From assembly GCA_001779575.1 (NCBI GenBank), contig MFKM01000030.1:1-30924 (forward strand): a stretch of DNA of 30,924 bases, given 5' to 3'. Origin of the DNA: Candidatus Jorgensenbacteria bacterium RIFCSPLOWO2_12_FULL_42_11. GTDB lineage: Bacteria > Patescibacteriota > Minisyncoccia > UBA6257 > MFKM01. Below are positions 3,267 to 28,288 of this stretch, one piece after another. Both the position numbers and the translations under genes were made by a program. The first letter of the stretch is position 1. Every line of letters starts with the position of its first letter. Under the pieces are notes generated by a model that saw nothing but the letters and a program-made list of their open reading frames with translations, searched no databases and was not told the DNA's origin.

Positions 3267-3563
3267 ACCCCCACACTCAAAAACTACTATGTTTTATTTC
3301 TATATCTTGCAATCAGTTAAAGATAAAGATTTGTATTTCGGATTTTCTTCTGACTTGCGACAAAGAGTAAAAGAACATAATAAAGGTCGCGTTCTTGCAA
3401 CCAATAAACGTAAACCACTGCGATTGGTATACTATGAAGCCTATCTTTCAGAAAAGGACGCCAGGAACAGAGAGCGACAAATTAAACTGCGCGCTCAAGC
3501 ATTTACTTCACTGAAACGTAGAATTAAAGATAGTATTTTACAGTAGTTTTTGAGTGTGGGGGT
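3267..3563 (+). mobile_element. Putative mobile cassette: GIY-YIG gene enclosed by a perfect 22-bp terminal inverted repeat
   Basis: ACCCCCACACTCAAAAACTACT (3267-3288) and its exact reverse complement AGTAGTTTTTGAGTGTGGGGGT (3542-3563). The ATG follows the left arm directly and the TAG lies inside the right arm. Mobility is inferred; no target duplication was seen. Confidence 0.55.
3289..3546 (+). CDS. Small GIY-YIG nuclease family protein (UPF0213-like)
   Basis: 85 aa; FYFYIL...LYFG (GIY-YIG variant), DLRQRVKEHN, KPLRLVYYEAY, ARNRERQIK. Confidence 0.88.
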   Translation: MFYFYILQSVKDKDLYFGFSSDLRQRVKEHNKGRVLATNKRKPLRLVYYEAYLSEKDARNRERQIKLRAQAFTSLKRRIKDSILQ

Positions 3564-4119: not shown

Positions 4120-4238
4120 ATGAATTACAAAACATCGCGAAATCAGAAATTTAAGTTTCAAGATTCCGGGCAGGCCCAGTAGTGAAAACTCGACTGCTTT
4201 TATAATTAAATTCAAAGGGTTTCACGCTAGAGCGTTAA
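4120..4238 (+). pseudogene. Two pilin signal-peptide relics
   Basis: 4120-4182 reads MNYKTSRNQKFKFQDSGQAQ* (SGQA resembles the GQALVE cleavage motif). 4182-4238 reads (GTG)KTRLLL*LNSKGFTLER* (KGFTL-E motif with stops). Confidence 0.55.
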
Positions 4239-4263
4239 CAAAAAATTGTTTTGAAGCTTCAAC

Positions 4264-4923
4264 ATGAATCAAGGTCATAAAATAAAAGAGAATTTAATAA
4301 GTCGAGTTTCTACTACTGGGCAGGCCTTAGTTGAAATTCTTATCGGATTGGCCGTGGCCGGAACTTTAATAGGCGCGGCGACTACGGCGTTGGTGGCGAT
4401 TTTGCGCTCCGGCTTGGAAACTAAAAATTTTCAAATCGCTTCTTCTTTGGGCCAAGAATTGATGGATAATGTCAAAACGGTGGCCGAAGCCGATTGGCGC
4501 GACATTTACGATTTGAGCAAAGGACAGAACACTCAATATTACGCAATGGCTTCGGGGACAGCGTCTATTATTTTTTCCGGCGTCGCCACATCTACCGTCG
4601 GCAACATTACTTATACCAAATTTTTTTCCGTAGAGAATGTTAAACGCTTAAGTGGAATTATCAGCGTTGATTTCTTGGCCGTTGATGATCCTTCCACCCA
4701 GAAAATTGTCAGCCACGTCCAGTGGCCCAGCGCCGGCCGGACTGCCGAAGCGGTTTTGACGGTTTATTTGAGCCGCTGGCGCAATTCTATTTCCCGCCAG
4801 ACCGATTGGTCGGGAGGAAGCGGTCAAACGGGGCCGGTTTCCGAATTAAATAAAAAATTTGCCTCCTCCACGGGCATTGATTATTCTTCAAGCACGGGTT
4901 CAATTATTATTCAGGGATTTTAA
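4264..4923 (+). CDS. Minor pilin-like protein
   Basis: 219 aa; TG|QALVEILIGLAVAGTLIGAA class III signal motif with Glu at +5. Confidence 0.82.
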   Translation: MNQGHKIKENLISRVSTTGQALVEILIGLAVAGTLIGAATTALVAILRSGLETKNFQIASSLGQELMDNVKTVAEADWRDIYDLSKGQNTQYYAMASGTASIIFSGVATSTVGNITYTKFFSVENVKRLSGIISVDFLAVDDPSTQKIVSHVQWPSAGRTAEAVLTVYLSRWRNSISRQTDWSGGSGQTGPVSELNKKFASSTGIDYSSSTGSIIIQGF

Positions 4924-12302: not shown

Positions 12303-12415
12303 GCGAATAACCAATGAAAAGATTTTTCTGAAACCCAAACGGAAGCGCAGTCCCTCCGCTCGCGAGCGGAGGGACGTGAGCGGGTTGAAGAAAAATCTTT
12401 TCATTGGTTATTCGC
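12303..12415. repeat. Nested palindromic element upstream of aspS
   Basis: Perfect 27-bp inverted repeat GCGAATAACCAATGAAAAGATTTTTCT (12303-12329 / 12389-12415) enclosing the perfect 26-bp palindrome GTCCCTCCGCTCGCGAGCGGAGGGAC (12350-12375). Confidence 0.9.
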
Positions 12416-15233: not shown

Positions 15234-15275
15234 TTTACTATTGTAATTCCACGATCGTGGAATTACAATAGTAAA
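15234..15275. repeat. Perfect 42-bp palindrome upstream of tatD
   Basis: TTTACTATTGTAATTCCACGA|TCGTGGAATTACAATAGTAAA with no loop; contains TTGTAA-17bp-TACAAT on both strands. Confidence 0.92.
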
Positions 15276-15348: not shown

Positions 15349-15425
15349 TCAGGATGGAAGGATTTGAACCTTCATCTTCTCGGTCCCAAACCGAGTGCTT
15401 TGCCTTGGTTTTAAGCTACACCCTG
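15349..15425 (-). tRNA. tRNA-Pro (TGG), CCA not encoded
   Basis: Acceptor CAGGGTG/CATCCTG, D arm GCTT/AAGC, anticodon arm CTCGG-TTTGGGA-CCGAG, T arm GAAGG-TTCAAAT-CCTTC, discriminator A. Confidence 0.92.
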
Positions 15426-26158: not shown

Positions 26159-26788
26159 ATGAAGGTAGATTTATTCAATCAAAAAAACGAAAAAACCGGA
26201 ACGCTGGACTTGCCAGACGCCGTTTTTGGCGTTGAATGGAATCCGGATTTGGTTCATCAGGCGTTGACGGTTCAAGTAGCCAATCGAAGGAAGGTTTTGG
26301 CCAACACCAAAGACCGGAGCGAAGTCAGCGGCGGCGGTCGGAAACCGTGGCGGCAAAAAGGCACCGGCCGGGCAAGACACGGCTCCACCCGTTCGCCTTT
26401 ATGGAGAGGCGGCGGCATTACTTTCGGTCCGATTAAAGAAAGAAATTTTTCCAGAAAGATTAATAAAAAAATGAAACAATTAGCGATTTTGGGAATTATT
26501 TCAAAAAAACTCGGCGAGCAGGAAATAAAAATCATTGACACTCTTGAATTGAAAGACCGCAAAACCAAAAATTTAGCCAACTTGGCGAAAAATTTTATTT
26601 CGTCAAAAGAAAGTCTTTTATTAATTCCGGCTAAAGAAAATAAAAATATTTATTCGGCGGCCCGCAATCTGGCGAAAGTCGGCGCGTTAAGCCCGGAGTC
26701 GCTTAACGTTTACGATTTATTGAAATATCAAAAAGTTCTTTTGGATCAAGGAGCCGTTGAATCAATAGTCAAACATTACAAAATATGA
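26159..26788 (+). CDS. rplD: 50S ribosomal protein L4
   Basis: [36 protein letters not shown]. Confidence 0.98.
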   Translation: [209 protein letters not shown]

Positions 26789-27024
26789 CCCAGTACTACA
26801 ACTCCGATGGTATTCTTCTAAGACAATACGTTATCAGATAGAAAGATGAAGTTTGTTTTATTGGTAAGGTCTGGGAGTTTTAATAAAACGACAGAAGAAT
26901 ACATTGAGACAAAAATTATTAAACAAGATATTATGAATAATCAGAACAAAAATAATCAAGTCGCATTAAATCTAATCAACTCCAAAATGAGGAATTTTTG
27001 TCTTTCGGAGTTGTAGTGCTGGGT
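26788..27024 (+). mobile_element. Unclassified 237-bp inverted-repeat element / structured RNA, copy 1 (at the rplW start)
   Basis: Arms ACCCAGTACTACAACTCCGA (26788-26807) and TCGGAGTTGTAGTGCTGGGT (27005-27024); flanked by ATG on both sides (26785-26787, 27025-27027); paralogous to 27307-27544. Confidence 0.7.
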
Positions 27025-27300
27025 ATGAAAATGACGATTAAAAAACCGATGATCAGCGAGAAGACGATGGAAATGGGGAAAATCCGCAAATATGTTTTTT
27101 TGGTTGACCGTCAGGCAAACGCTTATGAGGTTAAGAAAGGAATAGAATCCATCTACAAAGTTAACGTGGAATCGGTCAATGTTATAAATCAAAAAGGAAA
27201 AATCAAGAGGTCGGGTCGCGGCGTTAGTCGCCGGCCATCTTCCAAGAAAGCCATTGTGACTATCAAAAAAGGACAGACGATTGATGTTTTGCCAAAATAA
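27025..27300 (+). CDS. rplW: 50S ribosomal protein L23
   Basis: KKPMISEK, YVFLV, ANAYEVKKGIE, VESVN, KKAIVT. ATG 27025 is used; the track start 26998 lies inside the element. Confidence 0.95.
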   Translation: MKMTIKKPMISEKTMEMGKIRKYVFLVDRQANAYEVKKGIESIYKVNVESVNVINQKGKIKRSGRGVSRRPSSKKAIVTIKKGQTIDVLPK

Positions 27301-27306
27301 AATATG

Positions 27307-27544
27307 CCCAGTAACTCAACTCCGATGGTATTCTTCTGTGATAATGCGTTGTAAGATAAAAAGATAAAGCTTATTTTATCGAATATATTCAAAGAACCCA
27401 ACAAAACAAATAGAAGAATACTTCGAAACAAAAATCATTAAACTAAGATATATGAAAAATAAAAAACAAAACAAATCAGTCGAATCAATATCAACCAACT
27501 CCAAGACGAGAGATTTTTGTCTTTCGGAGTTGAGTTAACTGGGT
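27307..27544 (+). mobile_element. Unclassified 238-bp inverted-repeat element / structured RNA, copy 2 (at the rplB start)
   Basis: Arms CCCAGTAACTCAACTCCGA (27307-27325) and TCGGAGTTGAGTTAACTGGGT (27524-27544); flanked by ATG (27304-27306, 27545-27547); alignable with copy 1 along most of its length. Confidence 0.7.
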
Positions 27545-28288
27545 ATGACTACGGTTTTAATTAAAAGATTAAAAAAGGCGGCCGGCAGAAATTCCCAGGG
27601 GAGAATAACGGTTCGTCATCAAGGCGGCGGGCATAAGAAGCTTTACCGCTTGGTTGATTTTAAGCAAAATAAATTTGATATTCTCGGCCGAATTGAATCG
27701 CTGGAATACGATCCTTACCGTAGCGGCTTAATCGCTAAGGTGGTTTACGCTGACGGCGAGCGGCGTTATATTTTAGCTTCCCACGAAATGAAGGTGGGCG
27801 ACGAAATTATCACTTCGGCCGATGCTCCATTAAAACCAGGAAATCGCACTTTGCTGAAACGTATTGCGGTAGGCAGCTTCGTTTATAATATTGAATTGTC
27901 GCCGGGCAAAGGCGGCCAATTGGTTCGTTCCGCGGGCTTAGCCGTTCAGGTTCTGGCCAATGAGGAGGGCTATACTCATCTGAAATTAGCTTCCGGAGAA
28001 GTTAGAAAAGTTTTAGGGAGCGGTTACGCCACTCTTGGCCAGGTTTCCTATCCGGAACACAATTTGGAAGTAATCGGAAAAGCCGGCCGTTCGCGCTGGC
28101 TGGGAATCAGGCCGACTGTTCGCGGTACGGCTATGAATCCCCGCGACCATCCCTACGGCGGCGGTGAAGGTCGTCAGCCCCGAGGCACTCGCCGACCCAA
28201 GACCAAATGGGGCAAGATTACCGGTGGCCGCAGAACCAGAAACAAAAAAAAATGGTCAAGCAAATTAATTCTTGAAAGAAGAGAATAA
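27545..28288 (+). CDS. rplB: 50S ribosomal protein L2 (N-terminally short, 247 aa)
   Basis: GRNSQGRITVRHQGGGHK, EYDPYRS, GKAGRSRW, RPTVRGTAMNP-DHP-GGGEG. Confidence 0.98.
   Translation: MTTVLIKRLKKAAGRNSQGRITVRHQGGGHKKLYRLVDFKQNKFDILGRIESLEYDPYRSGLIAKVVYADGERRYILASHEMKVGDEIITSADAPLKPGNRTLLKRIAVGSFVYNIELSPGKGGQLVRSAGLAVQVLANEEGYTHLKLASGEVRKVLGSGYATLGQVSYPEHNLEVIGKAGRSRWLGIRPTVRGTAMNPRDHPYGGGEGRQPRGTRRPKTKWGKITGGRRTRNKKKWSSKLILERRE

Follow-up and report, generated by a model that had tools for sequence, protein, structure and literature searches.

The two long spacers in the S10 operon of Candidatus Jorgensenbacteria bacterium RIFCSPLOWO2_12_FULL_42_11 are shown, by comparison with related loci, to be inserted elements of a non-autonomous, MITE-like kind, derived from a mobile element of ~315 bp. 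They lie in a stretch of 30,924 nucleotides (contig MFKM01000030.1 of assembly GCA_001779575.1; hereafter, the window). An earlier reading of this DNA from its letters alone (hereafter, the sequence-only reading) had described two paralogous structured spacers with the same three-way junction, which is borne out here with the limits refined to 26789-27023 and 27307-27543. We consider it very probable that the locus as a whole is best explained by MITE-like insertions at start codons, with a putative single-stranded substrate for mobilisation and putative termination-reinitiation of host translation. The element family appears to be undescribed, and we found no published description of such an element in the literature on GIY-YIG enzymes, MITEs, CPR/Patescibacteria and UPF0213. 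The earlier suggestion of an undescribed system thus holds for the family; it does not hold for the kind of element, which is in spirit the IS or MITE that the same reading had named as counting against novelty. The features of the locus are as follows.

26159-26788, + strand: rplD, ribosomal protein L4 (Pfam Ribosomal_L4, E 7.5e-66)
26784-26788, + strand: element 1 target-site duplication TATGA, left copy (recurs at 27024-27028)
26789-27023, + strand: element 1, non-autonomous copy, 235 nt (evidence: fold, pairing, empty allele)
26789-26807 with 27005-27023: element 1 P1
26810-26819 with 26893-26902: element 1 P2
26909-26917 with 26993-27001: element 1 P3
26933-27016, + strand: element 1 small ORF, conserved, 27 codons, no Pfam family
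27024-27028, + strand: element 1 duplication TATGA, right copy, holding the rplW start codon (27025-27027)
27025-27300, + strand: rplW, ribosomal protein L23 (Pfam Ribosomal_L23, E 2.1e-26)
27303-27306, + strand: element 2 target-site duplication TATG, left copy
27307-27543, + strand: element 2, non-autonomous copy, 237 nt (evidence: fold, pairing, ends)
27307-27325 with 27524-27543: element 2 P1
27328-27337 with 27412-27421: element 2 P2
27428-27436 with 27512-27520: element 2 P3
27452-27538, + strand: element 2 small ORF, conserved, 28 codons
27544-27547, + strand: element 2 duplication TATG, right copy, holding the rplB start codon (27545-27547)
27545-28288, + strand: rplB, ribosomal protein L2 (Pfam Ribosomal_L2_N and Ribosomal_L2_C)

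Elements 1 and 2 are 77% identical. The rplD stop codon TGA (26786-26788) lies inside the left-hand TATGA, a word that is single-copy in congeners and in a ~95%-identical strain. The small ORF of element 1 stops at a TAG within the right inverted repeat, 8 nt 5' of the rplW ATG, and that of element 2 at a TAA that the bulged A in its right inverted repeat creates, 6 nt 5' of the rplB ATG.

The genes for L4, L23 and L2 are contiguous in four congeners (G001-G004), in agreement with the earlier remark that they normally almost touch; both junctions are uninterrupted there and hold a single (T)ATG(A). A 450-nt contig of the ~95%-identical strain (run X10) lacks exactly 26784-27023, yet reads into element 2. 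The family has nine copies (eight long and one short) on six contigs of this 529-kb genome, 72-79% alike; being 21-28% diverged, they may be old relics. Besides the S10 pair, seven copies lie on five other contigs, where the genes beside them are unrelated, and the S10 copies resemble each other no more than they resemble these. Contrary to what the sequence-only reading had implied, the pair is therefore not specific to the S10 operon, given nine dispersed copies, empty sites and a parent element that encodes a nuclease (described below). A cis-regulatory or protein-binding RNA dedicated to the S10 operon, locally duplicated and selected for its fold, would account for a stable, conserved structure found twice in one operon with RNA-binding products, but it is extremely improbable given the copies elsewhere, the S10 operons without the element in four congeners (and without element 1 in the ~95% strain), the target duplications, the nuclease-coding parent and the lack of any special closeness between the S10 copies, where a leader would be confined to the operon and conserved in relatives.

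Inverted ends with arms of 19-20 nt, which correspond to P1, are present in all 44 distinct elements, and direct repeats of 3-5 bp (usually 4) flank the element at 46 of 46 sites. The duplicated word is [T/A/C]ATG at 42 of these; the remaining four carry CAGG, CAGG, CAAG and CGTA, each matching on both flanks. At 40 of the 42 [T/A/C]ATG sites, an ORF of 50 aa or more starts at the right copy, without exception in one orientation, where a crude count puts the expected share at gene starts at ~17%; survivorship or a bias in the target word could be a partial cause of this preference. A Shine-Dalgarno-like motif precedes only 6 of the 42. The elements thus have several of the features that define a MITE: terminal inverted repeats, a target duplication with empty sites, dispersed gene-less copies (whose only ORF is that of 27-28 codons, without a Pfam match) and a coding parent with the same ends. 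We also considered the duplicated word as a part of the element, in the style of IS605, and rejected this, as the non-ATG flanks likewise match on both sides and the empty allele is single-copy.

The coding parent is known from six distinct elements of 313-318 nt, in one congener and in metagenomes, with identical ends and a single ORF for a GIY-YIG nuclease (E 1.3e-17). The protein has 87-88 aa, with PF01541 spanning residues 4-73 of 88, and the solved structures nearest to the 88-aa form are UPF0213 proteins and SLX1. Long gene-less copies align to the first ~140 nt and the last ~35 nt of the parent, which folds to the same junction. P2 in the parent pairs the region of the nuclease start codon with the codons of the E-H motif, and P3 is formed by the G-K-N codons and the 3' tail; as both stems are made of nuclease codons (with the 3' tail), the fold was inherited from the coding parent. 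In P2, 16 gene-less copies have A-U, the six parents without exception have G-C, as does a decayed parent, and a single intermediate has G.U.

The cognate nuclease was not found in the window's own genome (an 87%-complete assembly), where none of the three GIY-YIG genes has these ends; the nearest, at 3289-3543 of the window, is 51% identical and has different ends. Homologous nuclease genes occur in 90 of 121 genomes of this order, at up to 10 per genome, and 20 of 25 sampled from other genomes are enclosed by inverted repeats of their own, at 265-306 bp.

Elements 1 and 2 form an identical P1+P2+P3 three-way junction (z = -6.4 and -7.4, RNA folding against dinucleotide shuffles), and the P2 coordinates first proposed for both copies match those found here. 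Differences in P1 between the two are compensatory and P3 exchanges U-A for C-G, which confirms what had been noticed at the outset. Over 18 distinct copies, 99.2% of stem cells are paired and seven pairs have changed on both sides (four in P1, one in P2 and two in P3), a result reached by 0 of 500 shuffles, with slid registers pairing at 36-53%. P2 and P3 are mostly invariant in this set, so covariation within the family comes mainly from P1. P2 is also kept in the nuclease genes of seven other genera (54-67% aa identity), where four pairs have changed on both sides; in one case a change of an L/F codon is paired with a change of GAG/GAA, and in another M-R codons are paired with A-H codons. 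The stem is 81% paired in these relatives versus 34-52% in slid registers, and the cell count was reached by none of 500 shuffles. P2 is absent in nuclease clades having other end types. P3 is not conserved in other nuclease families (-0.6 to -11 kcal/mol versus -18.9 here) and is therefore family-specific.

As far as an alignment can tell, this covariation shows selection on a single-stranded fold, of RNA or of single-stranded DNA, between which covariation does not distinguish. The earlier claim of selection on RNA structure accordingly stands as to the conserved fold and the compensatory changes beyond the ends, and it does not extend to an RNA device. One-sided stem changes, read on the sense strand, comprise ~10 G.U versus 3 A.C, which weakly favours that strand. 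Folding energies of whole elements are better for the antisense strand in 16 of 18 long copies and for the sense strand in all six coding copies; the antisense strand is U-rich, and we set the comparison aside as uninformative on RNA-level selection.

The elements have no relevant match in Rfam at the gathering score or at E up to 10, in line with the initial failure to assign them to a known riboswitch, r-leader or intron. Only two tRNAs reach the gathering score in the whole window, and the best match in 26700-27650 is 'drum' (15.7 bits versus a gathering score of 43); no covariance model places the elements among riboswitches, r-protein leaders, ribozymes or introns. An intron-like or self-cleaving RNA that leaves the transcript, with the duplicated bases as its splice or cleavage borders, would explain why P1 joins both borders and why the element sits precisely between two copies of one short word. 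We hold this to be very improbable: ribozyme and intron families are unmatched even at that permissive threshold, inspection of the junction strands reveals no known catalytic core, the empty-site allele is present as DNA, and a nuclease-coding parent with inverted ends suits DNA mobility.

Four-base duplications and inverted ends are also typical of DDE transposition and, to our knowledge, GIY-YIG enzymes do not join or integrate DNA. The elements might accordingly be ordinary MITEs moved by a conventional (e.g. DDE) transposase, with the GIY-YIG gene as a passenger and the internal stems as by-products of decayed coding sequence. This is improbable, as all six distinct coding forms hold the nuclease as their only gene within 313-318 bp, most sampled homologues are likewise enclosed by their own repeats, and a search of the 400 genomes of the order and of the genome and metagenome collections turned up nothing longer that is bounded by these ends. 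The internal stem P2, moreover, covaries in coding relatives against amino-acid change and is thus not a by-product.

Of 18 long copies, 15 have the small ORF intact, with an ATG or GTG start; its codon-position entropies are 0.49/0.63/0.86, and its stop sits 6-9 nt 5' of the rebuilt ATG. Short relatives retain a 5-codon ORF with the same frame and the same stop in 14 of 17 cases, and most of their P2 is replaced by another hairpin at the same place. Neither element 1 nor element 2 has a terminator-like site, and a promoter/terminator scan of the elements gave nothing above shuffles. The sequencing runs in which this strain was detected are of DNA (X1-X9), and none of RNA was among them.

The fold might matter only in RNA, with DNA mobility needing the ends alone: P1 and P2 of the parent would hide the nuclease start from read-through transcripts, and gene-less copies would insulate the host start. 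The model for this is the fold-back inhibition of IS10/IS50, in which an RNA helix in incoming transcripts hides the transposase start codon. P2 likewise covers the nuclease AUG, and does so in every coding relative that has P2; small ORFs end directly before the host ATG, and G.U on the sense strand predominates among the one-sided changes, although G.T is the most tolerated mismatch in single-stranded DNA too. Here, unlike in IS10/IS50, no promoter belonging to the element is apparent, the host ATG is in frame with the nuclease in five of six coding copies, and the helix is present in gene-less copies as well. These copies have no nuclease to regulate and nevertheless hold both P2 arms almost invariant, and the replacement hairpin of the abundant short relatives fits a structural requirement in cis. 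An RNA-only role has a real, though rather small, chance of being correct.

MITE-like insertion with a folded single strand as substrate has partial parallels elsewhere. The Correia/NEMIS elements of Neisseria are bacterial MITEs that are co-transcribed with genes and fold into a long hairpin; they resemble the present elements in being short and gene-less, with terminal inverted repeats, a short target duplication and many copies beside genes. Known MITEs derive, however, from transposase-encoding IS, whereas the sole coding relative here is a GIY-YIG nuclease, and the start-codon target, the fixed orientation and the internal stems from coding sequence are further differences from Correia/NEMIS. 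IS200/IS605 and PATE/REP elements move by single-strand 'peel and paste' with a Y1 (HUH) transposase, without target duplication or terminal inverted repeats. Shared with them are very small size, putative recognition of folded single-stranded ends, probably one active strand, oriented insertion beside a short specific word, and gene-less derivatives that keep only the folded parts; the present family differs in its regular duplications (CGTA, CAGG and CAAG included), in ends that pair together in place of subterminal hairpins, and in its GIY-YIG enzyme.

A published parallel on the enzyme side is the Ssn nucleases, single-domain GIY-YIG proteins of ~90-100 aa with inverted repeats on both sides, an architecture that the authors call identical to that of insertion sequences (Chenal et al. 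2025, PMC11893778). They cut single-stranded DNA at a hairpin by sequence and structure, their NTS/SRM repeats are spread genome-wide, and the role proposed is in transformation, not transposition (PMC11893778). The 88-aa nuclease conforms to the ~100-aa single-domain form, but the published SRM pattern is found in none of the 44 elements, nor is it enriched across this genome (1 match versus 0-2 in shuffles). The ends pair mutually here, whereas each Ssn repeat is a hairpin, and neither target duplication nor start-codon targeting is described for Ssn (PMC11893778). Small insertions with a GIY-YIG gene as sole ORF are also known from rRNA genes of the same bacterial radiation, the CPR; they are not intron-like and were judged non-homing by their authors, and they differ in location, with inverted repeats and start codons unmentioned (PMC11270868).

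Insertion duplicates four (sometimes three or five) bases, nearly always [T/A/C]ATG at a gene start. On its left side the duplication leaves the stop of the upstream gene, or the former start context, in place; on its right side it provides the start codon of the downstream gene, which explains how the essential S10 operon can contain two copies. Gene-less copies have retained the P1, P2 and P3 segments of the parent while the remainder decayed. Because a non-autonomous element usually keeps what is needed in cis, the family nuclease, presumably provided in trans, may recognise one strand in its folded form, probably the sense one, and cut at the base of P1. Ribosomes on the polycistronic mRNA would be able to reach rplW and rplB by termination-reinitiation, owing to the compact fold together with the small ORF. 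The fold, judged from comparative data, is probably a single-stranded mobilisation substrate and/or a means of keeping host translation running.

A bolder proposal, which we advance tentatively and regard as doubtful, is that the junction is the form in which an autonomous DNA transposon operates, the smallest seen so far at ~315 bp and with a single gene, that of the 88-aa GIY-YIG nuclease. Its folded single strand would be recognised by P1 plus P2 and would integrate at start codons; it would borrow host start signals for the nuclease and return ribosomes to the host gene by an mRNA fold and a relay ORF.

If the nuclease does mobilise the elements, they would form a prokaryotic transposon class that is independent of all known transposases, well below every insertion sequence in size, and common in this order. 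The conserved pairing of the start region with catalytic-motif codons clearly exemplifies a coding sequence under constraint from nucleic-acid structure. In the annotation of CPR genomes, the inserts give rise to long spacers and upstream ORFs that are false, and they alter N-termini. Insertion that targets start codons and rebuilds them would illustrate a way for selfish DNA to spread in very small genomes dense with genes, the most conserved operon included, with the host surviving.

The S10-type ribosomal protein operon that Pfam identifies in the window is interrupted by two spacers, lying among its ORFs as follows:

26159-26788, L4 (rplD) ORF (Pfam)
26789-27023, element 1, the rplD/rplW spacer
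27025-27300, L23 (rplW) ORF (Pfam)
27307-27543, element 2, the rplW/rplB spacer
27545-28288, L2 (rplB) ORF (Pfam)

The spacers (235 and 237 nt) are 77% identical in alignment and are both predicted to form a three-way junction, whether folded as RNA or as DNA, in which stem P1 unites the two termini (RNA folding z = -6.4 for element 1 and -7.4 for element 2; DNA folding z = -5.7). The sequence-only reading had described this shared fold and could assign it to no known riboswitch, r-leader, intron, or IS. That observation is confirmed, since the spacers are present, the junction folds at strong z, the stem coordinates proved exact, and the Rfam scan was empty both at the gathering score and at E up to 10. 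Its interpretation held only in part: instead of a device specific to the S10 operon we find dispersed insertion, and each spacer is very probably a GIY-YIG inverted-repeat element in non-autonomous form, inserted at a start codon.

BLAST against the window's own genome (529 kb, 87% complete) recovered eight full copies, 72-79% alike, and a ninth relative of 137 nt with the same ends. The eight are dispersed over six contigs and the S10 junctions of congeners are empty, so the proposed S10-specific paralogous pair was not borne out, and the operon is a double hit, with two elements in one operon. The left end of every genome copy reads CCCAG..AACTCCGA, the right end is its complement, and a short direct repeat flanks each copy (TATG or TATGA in seven, CGTA in one). 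In four same-genus genomes (G001-G004), L4, L23, and L2 are contiguous and the junctions carry a single copy of the word duplicated in the window. Among public groundwater run contigs placed on the region, a 450-nt contig (record 12, run X10; ~95% identical) omits exactly 26784-27023, i.e. element 1 plus one TATGA, and runs on into element 2; element 1 is therefore a presence/absence polymorphism among close strains, the rplD/rplW junction being either filled or empty. Before insertion this junction was the common ATGA stop/start overlap, and target duplication kept a stop for rplD on the left and supplied the rplW start on the right.

A coding relative is found in congener G004. Besides a single 237-nt copy and at least 15 short elements (~139 nt) whose ends are identical, this genome carries a 317-nt element that shares those ends and encloses an intact 88-codon ORF. 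The product is a GIY-YIG domain (PF01541, E 1.3e-17); among solved structures it comes closest to the UPF0213 proteins BH0048 and EF2693, and to SLX1. A 19-nt pattern scan of metagenome and genome collections gave 44 distinct elements in total:

Coding elements, n = 6, 313-318 nt, 87-88 aa
Long gene-less type, n = 18, 228-245 nt
Elements of 174-179 nt, n = 3
Short elements, n = 17

The long gene-less type aligns to the coding element over its initial ~140 nt (the N-terminal half of the gene, now decayed) and its last ~35 nt. The coding element is predicted to fold into the same three-way junction, with the V-F-F codons right after the nuclease ATG as the 5' arm of P2, the (L)E-E-H codons as its 3' arm, the G-K-N codons as the 5' arm of P3, and the 3' arm of P3 beyond the stop codon. 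The window copies are an intermediate-length derivative that keeps the entire junction of its parent.

The 44 elements occupy 46 distinct sites, 42 of which are flanked by a duplicated [T/A/C]ATG; at 40 of these 42 the ORF that begins with the right-hand ATG is at least 50 aa long or runs off the contig, and orientation relative to the downstream gene is invariable. The other four sites show CAGG (twice), CAAG, and CGTA, in each case the same word left and right, which shows a true duplication, not a word carried by the element. By a crude count in the window's genome, ~350 such words lie at gene starts and ~1,700 in non-coding DNA, so that only ~17% would be expected at starts if insertion were random and disruptive copies were then lost. 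In five of the six coding copies the reading frame of the host ATG continues across the left end and into the nuclease, with six residues added ahead of its own Met, so that the start signals of the host gene may serve for making the nuclease.

On contig C64 of G004, two identical 139-nt short elements stand in tandem (L041:1461-1599 and 1604-1742) and share one TATG, the second apparently inserted at the start codon rebuilt by the first. At 5 of the 46 sites the downstream gene starts ATGCCC or ATGCCT, the bases of a host ATG plus the element left end (right flanks of L044:750-1066, L108:3899-4143, L041:1604-1742, L049:6304-6456, and L139:815-1058); they could stem from earlier copies whose footprint is an N-terminal Met-Pro, or from chance. 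Two 174-nt deletion derivatives with ends as in the S10 elements (L109:2584-2757 and L132:1514-1687) have CAGG flanks in a GGCAGG context, as at a pilin-leader site in the window, and CAGG may be a second preferred target word. That site (4175-4320) belongs to a second gene-less family, of 146 nt with ends CCCAGTAGTGAAAACTCGACT and further copies in the same genome (C2:5597-5741 and C7:4957-5102). It lies within the leader codons of a pilin-like gene between duplicated CAGG words (4171-4174 and 4321-4324); the former ORF from ATG 4120 now terminates in the left end, and ATG 4264 inside the element reads in frame past the right end into the gene (4264-4923), giving a new N-terminus.

In the 18 long copies, 99.2% of cells are paired and seven pairs have both partners altered (P1, four; P2, one; P3, two); none of 500 shuffles equalled this, and slid registers pair 36-53%. 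P2 and P3 are mostly invariant within the family and so, alone, little informative. The coding relatives are the stronger evidence. One P2 pair, A-U in 16 of the gene-less copies, is G-C in the six parents without exception and in one freshly decayed parent, and G.U in one intermediate. In 8 of 21 nuclease homologues the start-codon region has its single best pairing partner in the E-H codon region (-13 to -20 kcal/mol); the homologues with ends resembling those of the S10 elements are among these 8. Aligning 11 nuclease genes with this pairing, from eight genera, revealed four pairs altered on both sides, in 13 cells (0/500 shuffles equal; 81% pairing vs 34-52% in slid registers). Where a codon on one arm changes between Leu and Phe, the opposite arm compensates with a synonymous GAG/GAA change, and in one genome M-R codons pair with A-H codons. 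Such compensation across the genetic code marks P2 as a conserved nucleic-acid helix that constrains protein sequence; it appears to be an old covarying helix within the nuclease gene, the fold being under selection and older than the gene-less copies. P3 is specific to the S10-element family.

Covariation cannot discriminate RNA from DNA folding, and whole-element folding energies give no help on strand or on RNA versus DNA. One-sided stem changes (~10 G.U vs 3 A.C on the sense strand; one-sided binomial about 0.05) hint that the sense strand folds, as mRNA or top-strand DNA. A gene-less element is expected to retain what movement needs in cis, and exactly the P1, P2, and P3 arms are retained; the abundant short relatives keep P1 and carry at the P2 position a different hairpin, length-variable and covarying. 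Together with the related single-domain GIY-YIG enzymes (Ssn), which cleave single-stranded DNA at hairpins via sequence and structure (PMC11893778), this favours a folded single-stranded DNA substrate. An RNA role is suggested by the predicted burial of the nuclease AUG in P2, like the fold-back control of transposase translation, and by a small ORF conserved in gene-less copies. A DNA-substrate role seems the likeliest single function, possibly with an RNA role alongside.

Of 121 genomes of the order, 90 have homologues of the 88-aa nuclease, with as many as 10 in a single genome of 0.5-0.9 Mb. Among 25 homologues examined, 20 sit between inverted repeats of their own, forming 265-306-bp elements. 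The order-wide sample (L159-L188) includes at least four end types (CCCxG..ACAACTTCGA, ATCCCGTTAGAG, ACCCTGTTAAAT, and ACCCCGTTAGATA), and in several elements the last bases plus flank recreate ATG. The window itself holds a 297-bp cassette (3267-3563) with perfect 22-nt inverted repeats around a lone 85-aa GIY-YIG ORF (3289-3546; PF01541, E 1.1e-13) that shares 51% identity with the nuclease cognate to the S10 elements; the cassette ends are unrelated, and its predicted fold likewise pairs the start-codon region with K-E-H codons. Two other repeats lie in the window: a 34-nt inverted repeat (12303-12415; 94% complementary) around a GC-rich palindrome, 3' of a -10-like TATAAT, unrelated to the S10 elements and with nothing in Rfam at gathering score, and a perfect 21+21-nt palindrome without spacer (15234-15275), ~75 nt from a tRNA gene (15349-15425).

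Among known systems, the published Ssn/SRM system (PMC11893778), whose authors liken its repeat-gene-repeat arrangement to an insertion sequence, does not fit these elements by its SRM pattern, the one defining feature compared (0/44 matches). The S10 elements differ from derivatives of IS200/IS605 by their duplications and by ends that pair. In CPR rRNA genes, insertions with GIY-YIG alone have been noted that are neither introns nor homing elements, in a paper silent on inverted repeats and start codons (PMC11270868). The S10 elements show all the sequence-level features of a MITE and would work like one, with putative mobilisation in trans. Our literature coverage, which is incomplete, yielded no account of target duplication or start-codon targeting by a GIY-YIG element with inverted repeats.

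Finally, 15 of the 18 long copies carry an ORF of 27-28 codons that opens with ATG or GTG in one shared alignment column. Its TAA or TAG stop falls within the right end, 5-7 nt short of the element edge; the stops of the window copies precede the rplW ATG by 8 nt (element 1) and the rplB ATG by 6 nt (element 2). Entropy climbs by codon position (0.49, 0.63, 0.86), suggesting a modest coding signal, and the TAA arises from the single bulged A by which the right end exceeds the left in length. Of 17 short relatives, 14 have a five-codon ORF that shares the frame and stop of the longer one; the putative stop-in-the-end relay ORF is common to two derivative classes. The CGTA-flanked copy, the only one in the window's genome off a start codon, has lost both frame and stop. 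A terminator scan found no terminator-like site within either element, consistent with read-through transcription of the operon. The small-ORF pattern fits translational coupling by termination-reinitiation, which would stand in for the ATGA overlap destroyed by insertion.
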